This document shows positions 1,422-61,387 of a DNA stretch of 64,000 nt, one piece after another. The notes below the pieces were generated by a model. That model was not told the origin of the DNA, made no database searches, and saw only the letters and a list, made by a program, of their open reading frames with translations. Positions within the stretch are counted from its first letter, which is position 1, and every line of letters begins with the position of its first letter. The translations under genes and the position numbers were made by a program. The DNA is from an uncultured Acidobacteriota bacterium (GTDB taxonomy: Bacteria > Acidobacteriota > Vicinamibacteria > Vicinamibacterales > 2-12-FULL-66-21): assembly GCA_963797625.1 (NCBI GenBank), contig CAWCQI010000027.1, positions 192,774 through 256,773 on the forward strand, written 5' to 3'.

Positions 1422-1450
1422 TGCTGAATGCTGAGTGCTGAATGCTGAAT
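1422..1450 (+). repeat. four tandem TGCTGAR heptamers directly after the stop codon
   Basis: tgctgaa tgctgag tgctgaa tgctgaa begins 6 nt after TGA 1414-1416. The same string forms the left arm of the palindrome at 12261-12342. Confidence 0.85.
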
Positions 1451-1506
1451 TGGGAAGAGTGAAGTAAGATTCAGGCTCTTTCGACGAGCGGGGTGCTGCG
1501 AGCCTT

Positions 1507-2404
1507 ATGCGAGTCCTTCTGACGGGGGGCACGGGGTACATCGGATCGGCGGTTCTCGACGCGCTGGTTCGCGCCGGTCACCAGGTCGAGGCGCTCGTCC
1601 GCAATCGTGAAAAGGCGGCCGCGGTGCAGGCGCGCGGCGGCCATCCGGTGCTCGGCGACCTCTCGCGGCCCGAGACCTACGCGGGCGTGGCGGCGGCAGC
1701 CGATGGCGTGATTCACGCCGCGCTCGACGATGCGTCCCGCGGGCATGCGCTCGACGCCTTGGCGCTCGACACGCTGCTGTCGCCGTGCACGCGCCAAACG
1801 ATTCTTCATCTACACATCGGGCGTGTGGGTCCTTGGCCCGGCCCCGACGCCGGTGGACGAGACTGTTGCGGTCAATCCAGTCGAGCAGTCCGCCTGGCGC
1901 GTGCCGCATGAACAACGTGTGCTGGCCGCCGCGGGGCCGAACCTCCGCACTCTCGTCGTCCGCCCCGGCATCGTCTACGGCGGCTGCCGCGGGATTGTCG
2001 GCGATATGTTCAAGTCGGCCGCAAACGGCCTCGTCCGGGTGATTGGCACGGGCGAGAATCACTGGCCGCTCGTCTACGACCGGGATCTCGGTGAGTTGTA
2101 CGTGCTGCTGGCCACCAACCCGACCGCGTCGGGTGTTTTCCATGCCAACGACGAATGTGATGAGCGCGTCAACGACCTCGTCGCCGCGATTACCGGTCAC
2201 GTGTCGATTAGTCCGAGCATCCGCAAGGTCCCTCTGACGGAAGCCAGGAAGAAAATGGGTGTCTACGCGGACGCGCTGGCGCTCGATCAGATCGTGCGGT
2301 CCACTCGCGCGCGCGAGCTCGGCTGGGCGCCGTCGCTGCACGCCGTGTCAAGGAACGCCGCGCGTTTGTTCGAAGAGTGGCGGAACGGCCGCGAGGCGGC
2401 ATGA
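1507..2404 (+). CDS. NAD-dependent epimerase/dehydratase (extended SDR); +1 frameshift near 1785
   Basis: Rossmann N-terminus MRVLLTGGTGYIGSAV lies in frame 1. The conserved body (RFFIYTSGVWVLGP..VVRPGIVYG) continues in frame 2 (ORF 1730-2404). One extra base joins the two frames. Confidence 0.75.
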
Positions 2405-2410
2405 AACCGG

Positions 2411-57657: not shown

Positions 57658-58887
57658 TTACCCCTTCTTCGAGTACCTCGTCTCGACGTAGTTGTCGACG
57701 AGCTCGCGAAAGGCGGTCGCAAGTTCGTCGTAGGTGCCGCGCAGGGTCGTATGGTGCTGACCATCGATGTAGACGGGACAGTTCGGCGCTTCGCCCGTGC
57801 CGGGTAAGCTGATCCCGATGTTTGCCGCCTTCGATTCACCAGGGCCGTTGACGACGCAGCCCATGACGGCGAGGGTCATCGTCTCAACGCCCTCATACTG
57901 AGTCTTCCAGGCCGGCATGCGCTCACGGATGTAGTCCTGCGTGCGCTCAGCCAGTTCCTGGAACGTCGAGCTCGTGGTACGCCCGCAGCCCGGGCAGGCC
58001 GTCACGCTCGGGGCAAACGAGCGCAGCCCGAGCGATTGCAGGAGCTCGCATGCGGCGTACACCTCGTCGCGGCGATCGCCTCCCGGCCGTGGCGTGAGCG
58101 ACACGCGGATCGTGTCGCCGATTCCCTCGTTCAGAAGGACGCCCATGGCCGATGCCGACCAGACGAGCCCCTTCATGCCCATGCCCGCCTCGGTGAGCCC
58201 GAGATGCAACGGCTGATCGGTCTGCCGCGCCAGGTCGCGATAGACGGCAATCAGGTCGCGCGGACGTGACGTTTTGCACGAGATGATGATCTGGTCCTTG
58301 CGCAGGCCGGATTCGATCGCCAGCTCCGTCGACTGCAGCGCCGACAGGACCATGCACTCGTTGATGATCTCCTCGGAGGAGTGGCCGAGATCGCGGTCGG
58401 TGTTCTCCTGCATCTTGGCGAGGACGAGCTCCTGATTGAGCGAGCCGCCGTTGACGCCGATGCGGACGGGCTTGCCGTTGTCCCGCGCCACGGCGCAGAT
58501 GGTCGCAAACTGCTCGTCGCGCCGTCGTCCGGTCCCGACGTTGCCCGGATTGATGCGGTACTTGTCGAGCGCCTGGGCGCAGCCCGGATAGCGCGTCAGG
58601 AGCAGGTGCCCGTTGTAGTGAAAGTCGCCGATGAGCGGCGCCGTCACGCCGGCGGCGATCATGCGTTGCTTGATTTCCGGCACTGCCGCCGCGGCTTCGG
58701 GCAGGTTGACCGTCACCCGCACCATCTCGGAGCCAGCCTCCGCGAGCTCGATGCACTGGCGAGCCGTGCTTTCCGCATCGGCCGTGTCGGTCATCGTCAT
58801 CGACTGGACGACGACCGGTGCGCCGCCGCCGACCTGAACGGGCCCGACCCGAACGCCGATCGTCCTATGAAGTTTGAGGACTGCCAT
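57658..58887 (-). CDS. ispG: 4-hydroxy-3-methylbut-2-en-1-yl diphosphate synthase
   Basis: [37 protein letters not shown]. Confidence 0.9.
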
Positions 58888-59064
58888 GTCGATAACTCAT
58901 TCGATCATAGCAAGTTCTTCGGCTTGCGGTTGGGCTTGCGCCAACAGCCCGGCGTCACTTTTGCACCACCAGGGCTAAGTCGGGGCCGCGTGCCCGGTAC
59001 CGGCTGAACAGGAGGCGCTGACGTCTATGGCAATAGGGCGCCTCAGCAAACAGGTGAGGATTCG

Positions 59065-60022
59065 ATGACCGTACAGAGATGGAATCGCGCGGCAATTGCT
59101 CTACTGGCCCTGAGCTGGATGCTGTGTATGTCGGTGCCGGCCCTTGCGCAAACTGCTGTGTCGAGCGGCGACATTCAGCGTTTGCAGGACGAGGTGTACC
59201 AGGCCAGCGCCGACGTGTCGCGGTTGAGGACCACCGATGCGCTCCAGGCAGGCCGCCTGCAGGATGATCTCGACAGGCTGCGCGAAGACGTGATTTATCT
59301 CAAGGTGAAGCTGCGCAAAGAGAGCAGGGTGAGCCGCTCAGAGTACGACCAGGTTCGCGACGACCTCCTGGAGCTGCGTTCCCGCGCGCGAGGCGAGACG
59401 CGTCCACCGACCTCCGTGGGTAACGGCCCGACCTCCACGGGTGTCAGCGGCGGCTCTTCCGGATCGGCGCCGGTCTACGACGATCGGCCCCGCGCCACCA
59501 CCACCCGTGCTGGGCAAAGCGGGATTCCTGTCGGCCAGGAAATCGACGTGCGGATTCAGACGGAGCTGACGTCGGACACCGCTCAAGTCGAGGATCGGTT
59601 CGAGGCGACGACCGTGGTGGATCTGTATCAAGGCGATCGCGTGCATCATCCCGGCCGGCTCGGTGATGCGTGGGCTGGTCACGTCAGTGAATCGAGCGTC
59701 GCGCACCGATCGAAAGGGAAGCCTCACCGTCGCCTTCAATCAGATCACCGTTCGCGGCCGCAACTACCCAATGCGCGGCACGGTGACGGAGGCCATCGAG
59801 AGCTCGGGCATCAAAGGTGAGATCGGCCGGATCGGTGCGGGCTCAGCCGTCGGCGCCATCATCGGAGGCATCATCGGCGGCGCCAAAGGCGCGCTGATCG
59901 GCGTCCTGATTGGCGGCGGTGGCACGATGGTGGCGACAGAGGGGAAGGACGTGACCCTGCCGGCTGGAACGATCCTCCGCGTCAGGATGGATACGCCGCC
60001 AGAGATCAGCGCCGGAAGCTAG
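59065..60022 (+). CDS. secreted coiled-coil protein with C-terminal glycine-zipper region; +1 frameshift ~59644
   Basis: Signal peptide ..SVPALAQ and a coiled-coil region. ..LYQGDRV|IIPAGSVMRGLVTSV..GAIIGGIIGGAKGALIGVLIGGGG..LPAGTILRVRM joins ORFs 59065-59820 and 59663-60022. Confidence 0.5.
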
Positions 60023-61387
60023 CGGCGATACCAGTCCGGATGCTATTTCATGAGACGGTCCCGTGTTGTCCGTGTAATCCGCAGGCCCGTAGACCGCTCG
60101 CATAGCCTCGCGGGCGGCTTTGATTGTCCGCTGGACATCGCGCTCGGTGTGCGCCGCCGACAGGAACCAGGCCTCGAACTGCGACGGGGGCGGATAGATG
60201 CCCCGTTCGAGCATCGCGTGGAAGAAGCGGCCGTAGGCCCGGGTGTCGGCAGTCAGCGCCGACTGGTAGTCGACGACGGCCCGACTCGTGAAAAACGGGG
60301 TCAGCATCGATCCGAAGGCGTTCACTTGCAGGGGAACGCCCGCCTCCCTCGCGGCATCAGCGAGCCCGGCCGCCAACATCAACCCGTGTTTTGCCAGGTC
60401 GCGATAGAGCTTCGGCGAAAGTTCCTTCAACGACCACACGCCCGCTGTCATCGCCAGTGGGTTGCCCGAGAGGGTGCCCGCCTGGTAGACGGGGCCCGCC
60501 GGCGCGACGAGGTCCATGATGTCTGCGCGGCCGCCATACGCACCGACCGGCAAGCCTCCACCGATGATTTTTCCGAGGCACGTCAGGTCCGGACGAATCC
60601 CGGCGAGTTGCTGCGCGCCGCCGATCGACGCGCGAAATCCGGATATCACCTCGTCAAAGACGAGCAGCGCGTGTTCGCGATCGCACAGCGCGCGCAGCCC
60701 CTCCAGAAATCCCGGCTTGGGCGCTACCACGCCCATGTTGCCGGCAACCGGCTCGACGAAGACTGCGGCAATCTGTTTCGGGTTCTTTGCGAAGACGGCT
60801 TCGACCGAGGACAGATCGTTGTAACGCGCGATCAGCGTGTCTCGCGCCGCTCCAGACGAGACACCGGGGCTGGTCGGCACACCAAGCGTCATGGCCCCCG
60901 ATCCGGCCTGCACGAGAAACGCGTCGGCATGCCCGTGGTAGCAGCCTTCGAATTTGATGACGCGATCGCACCCGGTGGCCGCGCGGGCGACGCGGAGCGC
61001 ACTCATTGCCGCCTCGGTGCCCGAGCTGACGAAGCGGATCCGCTCCATCGAAGGCATGACGTTCGTCACGCGCGCGGCGAGCTCGGTTTCGAGCGCGGTC
61101 GGCGCGCCGAAGCTGGTGCCGCGAGCGGCCGCCGCGGCGAGTGCCTTGCGCAAGCGCGCCGGCGCGTGCCCGTGGATGAGCGGACCCCAGGACATCACGT
61201 AGTCAATGTAGGTGTTGCCGTCGACGTCCTCGAGCCGCGACCCCAGCGCTCTCGCCACGAAGATCGGGGATCCACCAACCGCCTTGAAGGCGCGCACCGG
61301 GCTGTCGACGCCGCCGGGAAGAAAACGACGCGCGTCGGCGAAGAGCTTCTCCGAGCGCGTGTACTTTGACCGCTTTCGCCGGATCAT
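59843..61387 (-). CDS. hemL: glutamate-1-semialdehyde 2,1-aminomutase; 3' end probably artefactually extended beyond ~60045
   Basis: Starts MIRRKRSKYTRSEKLF (ATG 61387). GGVDSPVRAF, FDEVISGFR. After ..AAREAMRAV the frame runs 65+ codons into the convergent gene. Both other frames stop at 60043-60050. Confidence 0.85.
   Translation of the reverse strand: MIRRKRSKYTRSEKLFADARRFLPGGVDSPVRAFKAVGGSPIFVARALGSRLEDVDGNTYIDYVMSWGPLIHGHAPARLRKALAAAAARGTSFGAPTALETELAARVTNVMPSMERIRFVSSGTEAAMSALRVARAATGCDRVIKFEGCYHGHADAFLVQAGSGAMTLGVPTSPGVSSGAARDTLIARYNDLSSVEAVFAKNPKQIAAVFVEPVAGNMGVVAPKPGFLEGLRALCDREHALLVFDEVISGFRASIGGAQQLAGIRPDLTCLGKIIGGGLPVGAYGGRADIMDLVAPAGPVYQAGTLSGNPLAMTAGVWSLKELSPKLYRDLAKHGLMLAAGLADAAREAGVPLQVNAFGSMLTPFFTSRAVVDYQSALTADTRAYGRFFHAMLERGIYPPPSQFEAWFLSAAHTERDVQRTIKAAREAMRAVYGPADYTDNTGPSHEIASGLVSPLASGADLWRRIHPDAEDRSSRQGHVLPLCRHHRATAANQDADQRAFGAADDASDDGADG
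60058..60081 (-). repeat. CACGGA-type 9-mers at the hemL 3' end (sense on minus strand)
   Basis: The minus strand reads cggattacacggacaacacgggac. Confidence 0.7.

Follow-up and report, generated by a model that had tools for sequence, protein, structure and literature searches.

REP elements share one 20–40-nt consensus with a GTAG/CGTC head, and their copies are spread by RAYT transposases. In cyanobacteria, short tandemly repeated repetitive sequences (STRRs) with 7-bp units fold into hairpins in the hupS–hupL interval, and the roles suggested for them are in transcript stability, termination or the coupling of translation (PMC2670836). A 2007 survey of prokaryotic simple-sequence repeats (SSRs) reported over-representation of heptamers; two papers that summarise it rank heptamers first among long SSRs in many bacteria, give polymerase slippage as the proposed cause and name Burkholderia, cyanobacteria, actinobacteria and Xanthomonas as the genomes richest in 5–11-nt repeats, with no mention of Acidobacteria (PMC4692102, PMC4679880). 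The repeats of Borg extrachromosomal elements are reported to occur within reading frames too, giving rise there to new stretches of intrinsically disordered protein (PMC9879509).

We analysed 64,000 nt (the window) of contig CAWCQI010000027.1 (assembly GCA_963797625.1), from an uncultured soil bacterium of the Vicinamibacterales (Acidobacteriota). The window held 16 period-7 arrays of at least three copies, compared with a mean of 0.53 (maximum 2) in 30 dinucleotide shuffles. A first-pass annotation had listed 15 sites with tandem units; TRF recovered arrays at 12, with 33680–33708 and 60058–60081 below its threshold. Nothing favoured assembly or sequencing artefacts arising from repetitive low-complexity reads, an explanation of negligible probability; some of the source metagenome-assembled genomes are long-read assemblies, in which small indel errors can occur. 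Seven independent metagenome assemblies from different samples and assemblers, 95–98% identical to the window, retain the elements at the same sites, as the annotation had proposed to check, and 78 related genomes show such elements too. The elements are therefore not artefacts, and this reading was rejected.

Table 1 Tandem-unit elements of the window (z, folding z-score; dot, no strand assigned).
Coordinates	Strand	Units and form	Context	Folding or detection
1420..1450	.	direct array, AATGCTG/AGTGCTG x4.4	starts 4 nt past stop of 49–1416 gene	TRF; no hairpin, z -0.7
2410..2469	.	hairpin, AGCTNTC / GANAGCT	between convergent epimerase and OMP genes	z -2.6
9246..9271	+	direct nonamer array, CACGGAYNA x2.9	flanked by co-directional genes; conserved in strains	TRF
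11024..11139	+	hairpin, AGCTNTC	occupies whole aldolase to BMC-H spacer	11024–11135: z -6.3, -59 kcal/mol
12258..12345	+	hairpin, TGCTGAR / YTCAGCA	end of third EutN gene	z -9.5
16843..16940	+	irregular direct array, CACGGAYNA nonamers	queE-like / queC-like spacer	TRF; z -0.1
20433..20454	-	short nonamer array, TAACACGGA x2.4 (minus strand)	~30 nt past stop of 971-aa gene	TRF
33680..33708	.	weak CTCARGG array, ~3.5 units	between convergent genes; adjoins ordinary GC-rich stem-loop 33706–33740	under TRF threshold
37955..38179	+	giant hairpin, CAGTCGN / NCGACTG; stem ~100 bp		z -17, -170.5 kcal/mol
41821..41931	+	hairpin, GGCTCAN / NTGAGCC	follows phosphoribosyltransferase-domain (PF00156) gene 41198–41821	z -10
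43267..43406	.	hairpin, GAGACAG / CTGTCTC	between convergent genes	z -4.5
45384..45464	-	hairpin, CCAGCTN / NAGCTGG	between minus-strand OEP-like and GT2 genes	z -7.4
50927..50982	.	11-nt units, GGGGTCAGACC; perfect 27+27 palindrome	end of pseudouridine synthase (PseudoU_synth_1) gene	z -11.1
57614..57649	.	direct array, CTGAACC x4.7	overlaps MatE gene stop, between convergent genes	TRF; no fold, z +0.2
60058..60081	-	~2.5 CACGGAYNA nonamers	in frame within 3' part of aminotransferase class-III (hemL-like) ORF	

Inverted-repeat search and folding revealed strong long hairpins at 7 of the 15 sites, and the others read as plain direct arrays, so that the earlier description of the elements as mostly long hairpins was overstated: folding was significant at those seven sites and not at 1420–1450, 16843–16940 or 57614–57649 (Table 1). 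The inverted-repeat search gave no inverted partner for 9246–9271 or 20433–20454. One further element of the same architecture (50927–50982) was absent from the original sites. Units of 8, 9 and 11 nt accompany the heptamers in part. At 37955–38179, the arms are collinear inverted copies (59-nt arms, 92% complementary by inverted-repeat search) whose match was reached by none of 200 unit shuffles, and inverted duplication or arm-to-arm correction is thus needed at this site. In most hairpins the arms lack such collinearity: only 11 of 108 beat unit-order shuffles.

As first described, the elements adjoin stop codons. The first unit of 11024–11139 overlaps the stop codon TAG, and its T5 run (11135–11139) is followed by a GGAGG ribosome-binding site. 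The stops of the third EutN gene (BMC-P3) and of the GT4 gene (43377–44504, minus strand) lie inside repeats: the EutN gene takes its last codons (..ITCNAEC*) from 12258–12345, and the 3' arm at 43354–43406 encodes the last nine codons of GT4 (..EDQETEDRR*). The same claim fails for hemL, because the hemL-like ORF (59843–61450, minus strand) reads through the nonamers and ends about 70 codons further, and the repeat is therefore not the source of its last codons. The 3' arm of 41821–41931 extends into the region where the DUF2400 gene starts; the ATG at 41915, taken initially for a start codon, is shifted by one base from the frame of that gene.

To place these elements, we surveyed 1.34 Mb from 78 Vicinamibacterales genomes and the window. 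With region types and distances approximate, being based on our own gene calls, period-7 arrays reached a density of 134.6 per 100 kb between genes versus 2.5 in coding sequence (54-fold), the preceding stop codon and the next start lying at median distances of 6 and 19 nt, respectively. Intergenic arrays numbered 218 at period 7, 72 at 8, 44 at 9 and 17 at 6, and 200 arrays comprised 115 distinct heptamers. The excess is length-specific, not sequence-specific, in keeping with the original picture of many unrelated units in one shared architecture; CAG/CTG was enriched among unit sequences (z = 3.9). Of spacers at least 40 nt long, 30% had an array when co-directional or convergent and 16% when divergent (odds ratio 2.2, p = 0.006), which bears out the proposed bias towards 3' ends.

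The arrays turn over by whole units. Within arrays, strain comparisons gave six gaps of 7 nt and one of 56 nt; gaps of 7 nt were absent elsewhere. At 97–98% overall identity, strains diverged by 4–8% in arrays, 1.6–2.1% in coding sequence and 3–6% in other intergenic DNA. Strains differ by whole units at 2410–2469, where the arms in L009 have 5 versus 13 units and L008 has a REP-like hairpin instead; array length at 16843–16940 differs greatly among strains, and the 1420–1450 array was found in L001–L003. The aldolase to BMC-H spacer, compared across 76 species, was short in 27, contained arrays in 27, other structured inserts in 20 and weakly structured sequence in 2, and the 27 array-bearing spacers had 25 different consensus units as TRF lists them. 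Between species, one orthologous spacer can thus differ in its units, have an unrelated hairpin in their place or lack an element altogether. The arrays are dispensable and replaceable at orthologous sites. Comparison of the same intergenic regions in relatives thus agreed with the local unit amplification proposed initially, through whole-unit indels, independent arm growth and unit change across species; a purely local origin is incomplete.

Within a genome, the sharing of units between spacers exceeds chance fivefold (18 pairs versus 3.6). An identical 25-nt multi-unit stretch occurs at both 1420 and 12263. The same 25-nt array is present in at least 120 metagenome contigs of 33–72% GC and in several viral contigs, which also hold many other heptamer arrays, and the elements are not lineage-specific as had been supposed. 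Given how common the 25-mer is in unrelated genomes, its identity at the two sites may be coincidence. The heptamer AATGCTG recurs in genomes of 33–72% GC. Neither this recurrence nor the unit sharing is predicted by neutral slippage alone, and they hint at favoured sequences, copying between sites or a binding factor.

We consider it probable (roughly 60%) that the elements are heptanucleotide long SSRs of the same kind as the cyanobacterial STRRs, made by slippage, with the hairpins as dispensable stem-loops. Replication slippage would amplify short intergenic motifs unit by unit, with a 7-nt step preferred whatever the sequence, a preference that these data do not themselves account for. 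Since 7 cannot be divided by 3, such arrays would persist only outside reading frames, building up in the few bases from a stop codon to the next ribosome-binding site or gene end. A hairpin could be seeded by a small inverted repeat, each arm then being amplified independently; whole-unit indels are tolerated since a long hairpin pairs in any 7-nt register. By analogy, transcribed hairpins probably serve as generic stem-loops at 3' ends or separating cistrons; they could halt exonucleases, stabilise the mRNA upstream of them or place a stop near the next start, in a dispensable and sequence-independent role. The anatomy, position, turnover and distribution of the elements were observed, whereas slippage and any RNA-level role are our inference. 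Against this account count the arrays in 16% of divergent spacers, the CAG/CTG enrichment and the collinear arms at 37955–38179.

The hairpins might instead be selected RNA elements (mRNA stabilisers, terminators that lack a U tract, sites of RNase processing or couplers of translation), and a stem would simply be assembled and resized most readily from tandem units. Median hairpin length was 22.5 bp in array-bearing spacers versus 15 bp elsewhere (p = 6e-11), hairpins span exactly the interval from stop codon to ribosome-binding site, the 20 of 76 species with other structured inserts have a different strong hairpin in the aldolase to BMC-H spacer, and the enrichment downstream of genes and the T5 tail of 11024–11139 point the same way. 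However, half of array spacers have no long hairpin, 27 of 76 species lack any spacer element at the same site, arm variant positions are unmatched and the arrays change no more slowly than other intergenic DNA. Nor does the sense strand fold better (energy lower in 79 spacers, higher in 72), and T tracts after hairpins, mostly absent as first noted, are strand-symmetric (10% sense, 12% antisense), which together make such selection unlikely. Strand composition showed no GC skew and only a weak excess of A over T (p = 0.02); like folding energy and T tracts, it gave no sign of RNA-level selection. The comparison with REPs or terminators originally drawn thus holds for position only, there being no REP consensus, U tract or sense-strand bias. 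The elements had no match in Rfam.

The arrays could be binding platforms for a protein each subunit of which reads some 7 nt of DNA or RNA, with loose sequence preference; cold-shock-domain proteins are an example, CspB reportedly binding as one protein per heptamer (work cited in PMC4679880), and CsrA-like regulators are an alternative for the GGA nonamers. Constant unit length with variable sequence, favourite units per genome, an identical heptamer in distant genomes and the mostly sense orientation of CACGGA-type arrays (8 versus 2) would fit, but direct arrays overall have no strand bias relative to transcription, 115 unrelated units demand a nearly non-specific binder, and the arrays are dispensable at orthologous sites; platforms are quite improbable. 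Transposase-spread miniature mobile elements of REP/REPIN or MITE type, with tandem structure secondary, would explain the unit sharing within genomes, the 25-nt identity and the true REP-like, GTAG-headed hairpins and MITE-like insertions in the same spacers of relatives. This origin is very improbable: the elements have no common consensus, conserved GTAG/CGTC head, terminal inverted repeats or target duplications, their lengths vary continuously by units, the 25-mer is frequent in unrelated genomes and one orthologous site holds different units.

The first-pass annotation did not recognise a described repeat family, but the elements fit both the heptanucleotide long SSRs and the cyanobacterial STRRs. 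Like REP, BIME and REPIN sequences they include palindromes outside genes, located at 3' ends or separating cistrons, that may stabilise mRNA, and true REP-like hairpins sit in the same spacers of related genomes; unlike them, they are made of tandem units without a consensus. With Borg repeats (PMC9879509) they share pervasive direct tandems, local formation, rapid evolution and independent rise at many sites, whereas the 7-nt units here are kept out of coding sequence and hairpin pairing involves about half of the arrays. Intergenic heptamers near start or stop codons, strain length variation, occasional inverted pairs and one heptamer in distant phyla recall the Xanthomonas and Nostoc GGGAATC-type and Beggiatoaceae TAACTGA repeats (PMC4692102, PMC4679880). 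In those systems a single unit dominates each genome, either a G-rich one that forms quadruplexes or TAACTGA ahead of start codons, whereas the present arrays use many units, none G-rich, lie mainly just past stops and form hairpins in about half of cases. The heptanucleotide long SSRs summarised in the two papers match in the dominance of heptamers among 5–11-nt repeats, over-representation, non-coding location and strain variability, although these papers report inverted pairing only for individual cases in Xanthomonas and Nostoc (PMC4692102, PMC4679880). The cyanobacterial STRRs differ in host (filamentous cyanobacteria rather than Vicinamibacterales) and in their units, which are far more diverse here (115 heptamers in 1.3 Mb), with homology neither found nor expected; both have tandem 7-bp intergenic units in several families per genome at many loci, some as hairpins between cistrons (PMC2670836). 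The elements are a new occurrence of a known, poorly understood repeat type rather than a new kind of element.

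The tandem-unit elements of the window are a real and pervasive repeat class. Tandem Repeats Finder (TRF) recovered the units reported in the first-pass annotation and called arrays at 12 of its 15 sites; two arrays, of about 3.5 and 2.5 units, fell under its threshold (see table). Period-7 arrays of at least three copies numbered 16 in the window, against a mean of 0.53 and a maximum of 2 in 30 dinucleotide-preserving shuffles. Some units recur within the window: TGCTGAR at two sites, AGCTNTC at two and CACGGAYNA at four.

Arrays, genes and further repeats in the window (z, folding z-score, with start of the folded segment where several sites share a line)
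Coordinates	Unit or feature	z	Remarks
1420-1450 and 12263-12340	AATGCTG	~0 (1420); -9.5 (12258)	TRF; plain direct array at 1420
2410-2469 and 11024-11135	AGCTATC / GAGCTGA	-2.6 (2410); -6.3 (11024)	TRF
9246-9271, 16846-16940, 20433-20454	CACGGATCA	~0 (16843)	TRF; plain direct array at 16843
33680-33708			~3.5 units, under TRF threshold
37962-38172	CAGTCGN	-17.1 (37955-38179)	TRF
41821-41931	GGCTCAT	-10.0	TRF
43267-43406	ACAGGAG / TCTCCTA	-4.5	TRF
45384-45464	CAGCTAC / GCTGGAA	-7.4	TRF
57614-57649	GAACCCT	~0	TRF; plain direct array
60058-60081	CACGGAYNA		~2.5 units, under TRF threshold
10168-12270	aldolase-BMC-H-EutN locus		class II aldolase at 10168-11025
13526-13650	insertion with GC-rich hairpins (GGGGAGTCCGAGGGGCGAAGCCCCTCGGG)		~125-138 nt
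28987-29077	(GAC)n triplet array		~30 copies, 21-nt higher-order period; in small predicted gene 28843-29103, plus
30440-30504	inverted repeat with GGGGTCAG motif		
43377-44504	GT4 gene		minus; Pfam
50927-50982	palindrome of 11-nt units (GGGGTCAGACC)		perfect, 27+27 nt
59843-61450	aminotransferase class-III (hemL-like) ORF		minus
62832-63164	small Xre-type HTH / antitoxin-like gene		minus; start at 63164
63175-63214	17-nt unit (GCGCAACAAAAACTGTT, x2.2)		overlapping palindromes

An inverted-repeat search found long complementary arms at seven of the listed sites, including a stem of about 100 bp (-170 kcal/mol by folding) at 37955-38179, and found no inverted partner for the arrays at 9246 and 20433. 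The elements had been described as mostly hairpins; hairpins do occur at seven listed sites, but with the others direct or sub-threshold the share becomes about half rather than most. In a pooled set comprising the window and 78 non-redundant Vicinamibacterales loci (1.34 Mb, 88% coding by our own codon-usage gene calls), hairpins of at least 15-20 bp that include arrays were present in ~50-57% of array-bearing spacers. The match between arms exceeded that of unit-order shuffles in just 11 of 108 hairpins (permutation test). The units' variable positions are therefore usually unpaired between arms, which accounts for the regular spacing of mismatches and speaks for the two arms growing independently. 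Copying from arm to arm was rejected as a general explanation, the permutation test being negative in most hairpins and positive for 37955-38179 alone. There the irregular arms are collinear, with the observed match reached by 0 of 200 shuffles, and this requires inverted duplication or arm-to-arm correction.

The class II aldolase is encoded as an identical protein on seven contigs from differing metagenome samples and assemblers, with DNA 95-98% identical to the window. All seven carry the elements at matching positions, which excludes an assembly artefact. Scanning species-representative genomes gave 80 loci, all from uncultured Acidobacteriota and many named Vicinamibacterales, the closest with 99% protein and ~95.5% DNA identity. 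Downstream of the aldolase come shell genes, one for BMC-H and three of EutN/CcmL type; this microcompartment locus, of a type known from Planctomycetes and Verrucomicrobia, is kept across ~80 Vicinamibacterales genomes.

Arrays of at least three copies in the pooled set were counted as 17 intergenic and 59 coding at period 6, 218 and 30 at period 7, 72 and 14 at period 8, and 44 and 40 at period 9. Per 100 kb, period-7 arrays numbered 134.6 in intergenic and 2.5 in coding sequence (54-fold); this excess, together with the peak at period 7, shows a length-specific process that is kept out of reading frames. When spacers of 40 nt or longer were compared, 30% of the co-directional and 30% of the convergent ones held arrays but only 16% of the divergent ones (odds ratio 2.2, p = 0.006). 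Median gaps were 6 nt from stop codon to array and 19 nt from array to next start; arrays occupy the interval from stop codon to ribosome-binding site, bearing out the proposed positional bias toward gene ends. The 200 intergenic heptamer arrays comprise 115 distinct units (rotations and both strands merged), whose GC content averages 54% against ~65% for the genome. A motif shared across units was rejected: units have a modest excess of the triplets CAG/CTG, AAT and GAA and a deficit of GTA, ATA and ACA, without a consensus. Spacers of the same genome share a unit in 18 pairs (3.6 expected, maximum 9 in 300 permutations); each genome therefore has favourite units.

The arrays lengthen or disrupt gene ends here (GT4, EutN, hemL-like and DUF2400; gene calls for 21-64 kb from our own codon-usage caller and Pfam), and can mislead terminator predictors and gene callers on MAGs. 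As annotated at first pass, the third EutN gene terminates with ..ITCNAEC within the 12261 element and the GT4 gene with ..EDQETEDRR within the 43354-43406 arm. The last codons of hemL had been ascribed to the repeat as well; the nonamers at 60058-60081 are read in frame, but the ORF extends ~70 codons past them and past the Pfam domain (59843-60057); the repeat may have created this C-terminal extension, or there may be a frame error. Nor does a proposed start codon at 41915 hold, as that ATG sits one base off the DUF2400 frame. In that frame, protein-like sequence (ALQPSLASSLDALYRDYN..) begins immediately after a TGA in the last repeat unit and the first canonical start appears only at 42006 (window 41915-42006), reflecting either a 1-nt assembly error or a true start overwritten by the repeat.

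Other repeats also touch genes in the window. The 11-nt-unit palindrome overlaps the 3' end of PseudoU_synth_1 (pseudouridine synthase) and has the GGGGTCAG motif in common with the inverted repeat at 30440-30504; the two may form a separate small repeat family. The 17-nt-unit palindromes lie ~10-50 nt upstream of the start of the HTH gene and look like an operator rather than a heptamer element, and the (GAC)n array probably encodes a poly-Asp tract.

At 97-98% overall identity between strains, arrays carried 4-8% substitutions, coding sequence 1.6-2.1% and other intergenic sequence 3-6%. Gaps inside arrays included six of exactly 7 nt and one of 56 nt, and none of the ~120 gaps outside arrays in these alignments was of 7 nt. 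At the 2411 site, unit numbers were ~3.5+3 in the window, 4+4 in the related assembly L002, and 5 against 13 for the two arms of L009. In L008 (~95% identity), a GTAG-headed REP-like hairpin (GTAGTGTCCGCCTTTAGGCGGAC) replaces the heptamer hairpin at that site. Another REP-like hairpin (GTCCGCCTGAAGGCGGAC) is inserted between two EutN genes of L002 (11820-11895). Several hairpin families compete for common spacers. The aldolase to BMC-H spacer (window 11024-11139) was compared across 76 species: in 27 it is under 45 nt long and holds no element; in 27 it carries arrays (21 hairpins and 6 direct, with 25 different TRF-listed consensus units); in 20 it contains structured inserts of other kinds, classical REP-like hairpins among them; and in 2 its structure is weak. 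The element can therefore be dispensed with, and its gain, resizing and replacement are recurrent. Genomes graded at 98%, 95%, 82% and 75% identity capture gain, growth, asymmetric expansion, decay and replacement at one site. The GC-rich insertion at 13526-13650 is absent from L003, present in L001 and shorter in L002, with similar motifs in the aldolase spacers of loci L016 and L028; this insertion appears MITE-like and separate from the heptamer arrays.

The elements had been called lineage-specific, which does not hold. A 25-mer (AATGCTGAATGCTGAGTGCTGAATG) shared by sites 1420 and 12263 has exact copies, often within hairpins, in at least 120 metagenome contigs that have unrelated flanks and 33-72% GC. 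These contigs contain 106 additional period-7 arrays with other units. Their density, 1.4-1.9 per 10 kb for the two main GC classes, may be biased upwards because the contigs were chosen for carrying an array. With A or G at one position, the 25-mer also matches 12 stretches of IMG/VR viral contigs, which are rich in period-7 arrays. One of them, IMGVR_UViG_3300028840_003139 (40 kb, 63-65% GC), has at least 10 AATGCTG arrays between small genes, with composite direct arrays, (TGCTGAA)n then (CCCTGAC)n, in several examined spacers. Evidently, many other soil bacteria and viruses also carry this repeat class. Copying between sites, suggested by the 25-nt identity of 1420 and 12263, is weakened accordingly, since a 25-mer so widespread in unrelated contigs is weak evidence for it.

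The label 'REP/terminator-like' is apt for position only. A REP or REPIN is one conserved, imperfect palindrome of 20-40 nt with a GTAG or CGTC head, present in many copies; 115 unrelated units without such a common head do not fit. REPs also go with a RAYT (Y1 transposase) gene somewhere in the genome; the ~45 annotated genes of the 64-kb window include no transposase. An intrinsic (Rho-independent) terminator would have a GC-rich stem-loop and, after it on the sense strand, a U tract; T tracts are, as annotated, rare, with 11135-11139 the sole exception, T runs (at least 4 T in 6 nt) followed hairpins in 10% of cases on the sense and 12% on the antisense strand, and a terminator scan found no enrichment of canonical sites (9 vs 9.5 expected). 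RNA-level selection was likewise found unsupported: sense-strand folding in co-directional array spacers was better in 79 and worse in 72 (p = 0.78), and direct-only arrays had no GC skew relative to transcription and only a weak excess of A over T (p = 0.02). An Rfam scan of the window gave 0 matches at or above the gathering score, and no tRNA or tmRNA genes lie within it. CACGGA nonamer arrays occur at 9246, 16891 and 20434 (minus strand) and in four further loci (L012, L029, L032, L075); their ACACGGAU motif resembles CsrA-type GGA binding sites, a reading set aside because orientation to flanking genes (8 sense, 2 antisense) was not significant.

Phase-variation (contingency) repeats, in which unit changes within a reading frame or promoter spacer turn a gene on or off, do not match arrays that follow stop codons and are rarer in divergent (promoter) spacers. 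MITEs have a uniform length, terminal inverted repeats and a target-site duplication; strain comparisons, which offered no clean filled-versus-empty heptamer site, revealed no defined ends or target duplications, and lengths step by units. Origin by local amplification, as proposed at first pass, is well supported by the strain and species comparisons. Its likeliest mechanism is slippage by whole units in non-coding DNA; inverted seeds would then yield register-tolerant hairpins, and such stem-loops may have a dispensable role between cistrons. Slippage itself, the cause of the 7-nt step and any functional role are inferences from these patterns.

A residue is unexplained by this account: the per-genome favourite units, AATGCTG in very different genomes, the CAG/CTG enrichment in units and the collinear giant hairpin at 37955-38179. 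Because of this residue, a dedicated factor specific to heptamers retains a small probability. We consider it improbable that a dedicated, length-measuring process other than ordinary slippage builds the 7-nt arrays, with their inverted counterparts, where cistrons meet in many soil bacteria and in the viruses of these bacteria; the agent could be a particular replication or repair enzyme with that property, or a nucleic-acid-binding protein that reads heptamers. If so, the arrays would be a tunable, sequence-free system setting mRNA segment stability or translational coupling, and a shared factor would account for identical heptamers such as AATGCTG turning up across 33-72% GC. The lineage is an unusually rich data set (arrays in ~30% of post-gene spacers; more than 100 units, one length) and, with the graded genomes, allows mutational by-product to be tested against selected stem-loop in soil Acidobacteria, which are abundant, and in their viruses.

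In cyanobacteria, heptamer repeats have been recognised for decades. Heptamers are the commonest of 5-11 nt repeats in many bacterial genomes, with polymerase slippage over a 7-nt contact as the proposed cause (PMC4679880, PMC4692102), and were flagged in 2007 as the dominant long simple-sequence repeat (LSSR) class in bacteria. Xanthomonas and Nostoc have intergenic GGGAATC-type arrays, variable between near relatives and at times in inverted pairs (PMC4692102); TAACTGA arrays occur in Beggiatoaceae, cyanobacteria and Bacteroidetes (PMC4679880). The 7-bp cyanobacterial STRRs form hairpins between hupS and hupL, with suspected effects on transcript stability, termination or translational coupling (PMC2670836). 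Literature searches found no published description of these repeats in Vicinamibacterales or Acidobacteria. The view that they belong to no described family is superseded, as they have every structural trait of the heptamer LSSR/STRR class: head-to-tail 5-11 nt units beyond chance length (TRF), predominance of period 7 kept from coding sequence, and copy number that varies among close strains, with 7-nt and 56-nt gaps confined to arrays. Like cyanobacterial STRRs, they are 7-bp intergenic tandem units, with one unit at several loci per genome, favourite families in each genome and some copies forming hairpins between cistrons. Unlike the STRRs of filamentous cyanobacteria, their nearest genomes are Vicinamibacterales and other Acidobacteriota MAGs, and the unit sequences differ. 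The elements thus behave like an STRR without belonging to the STRR sequence family, and are best filed as STRR-like heptanucleotide LSSRs in a new host lineage.
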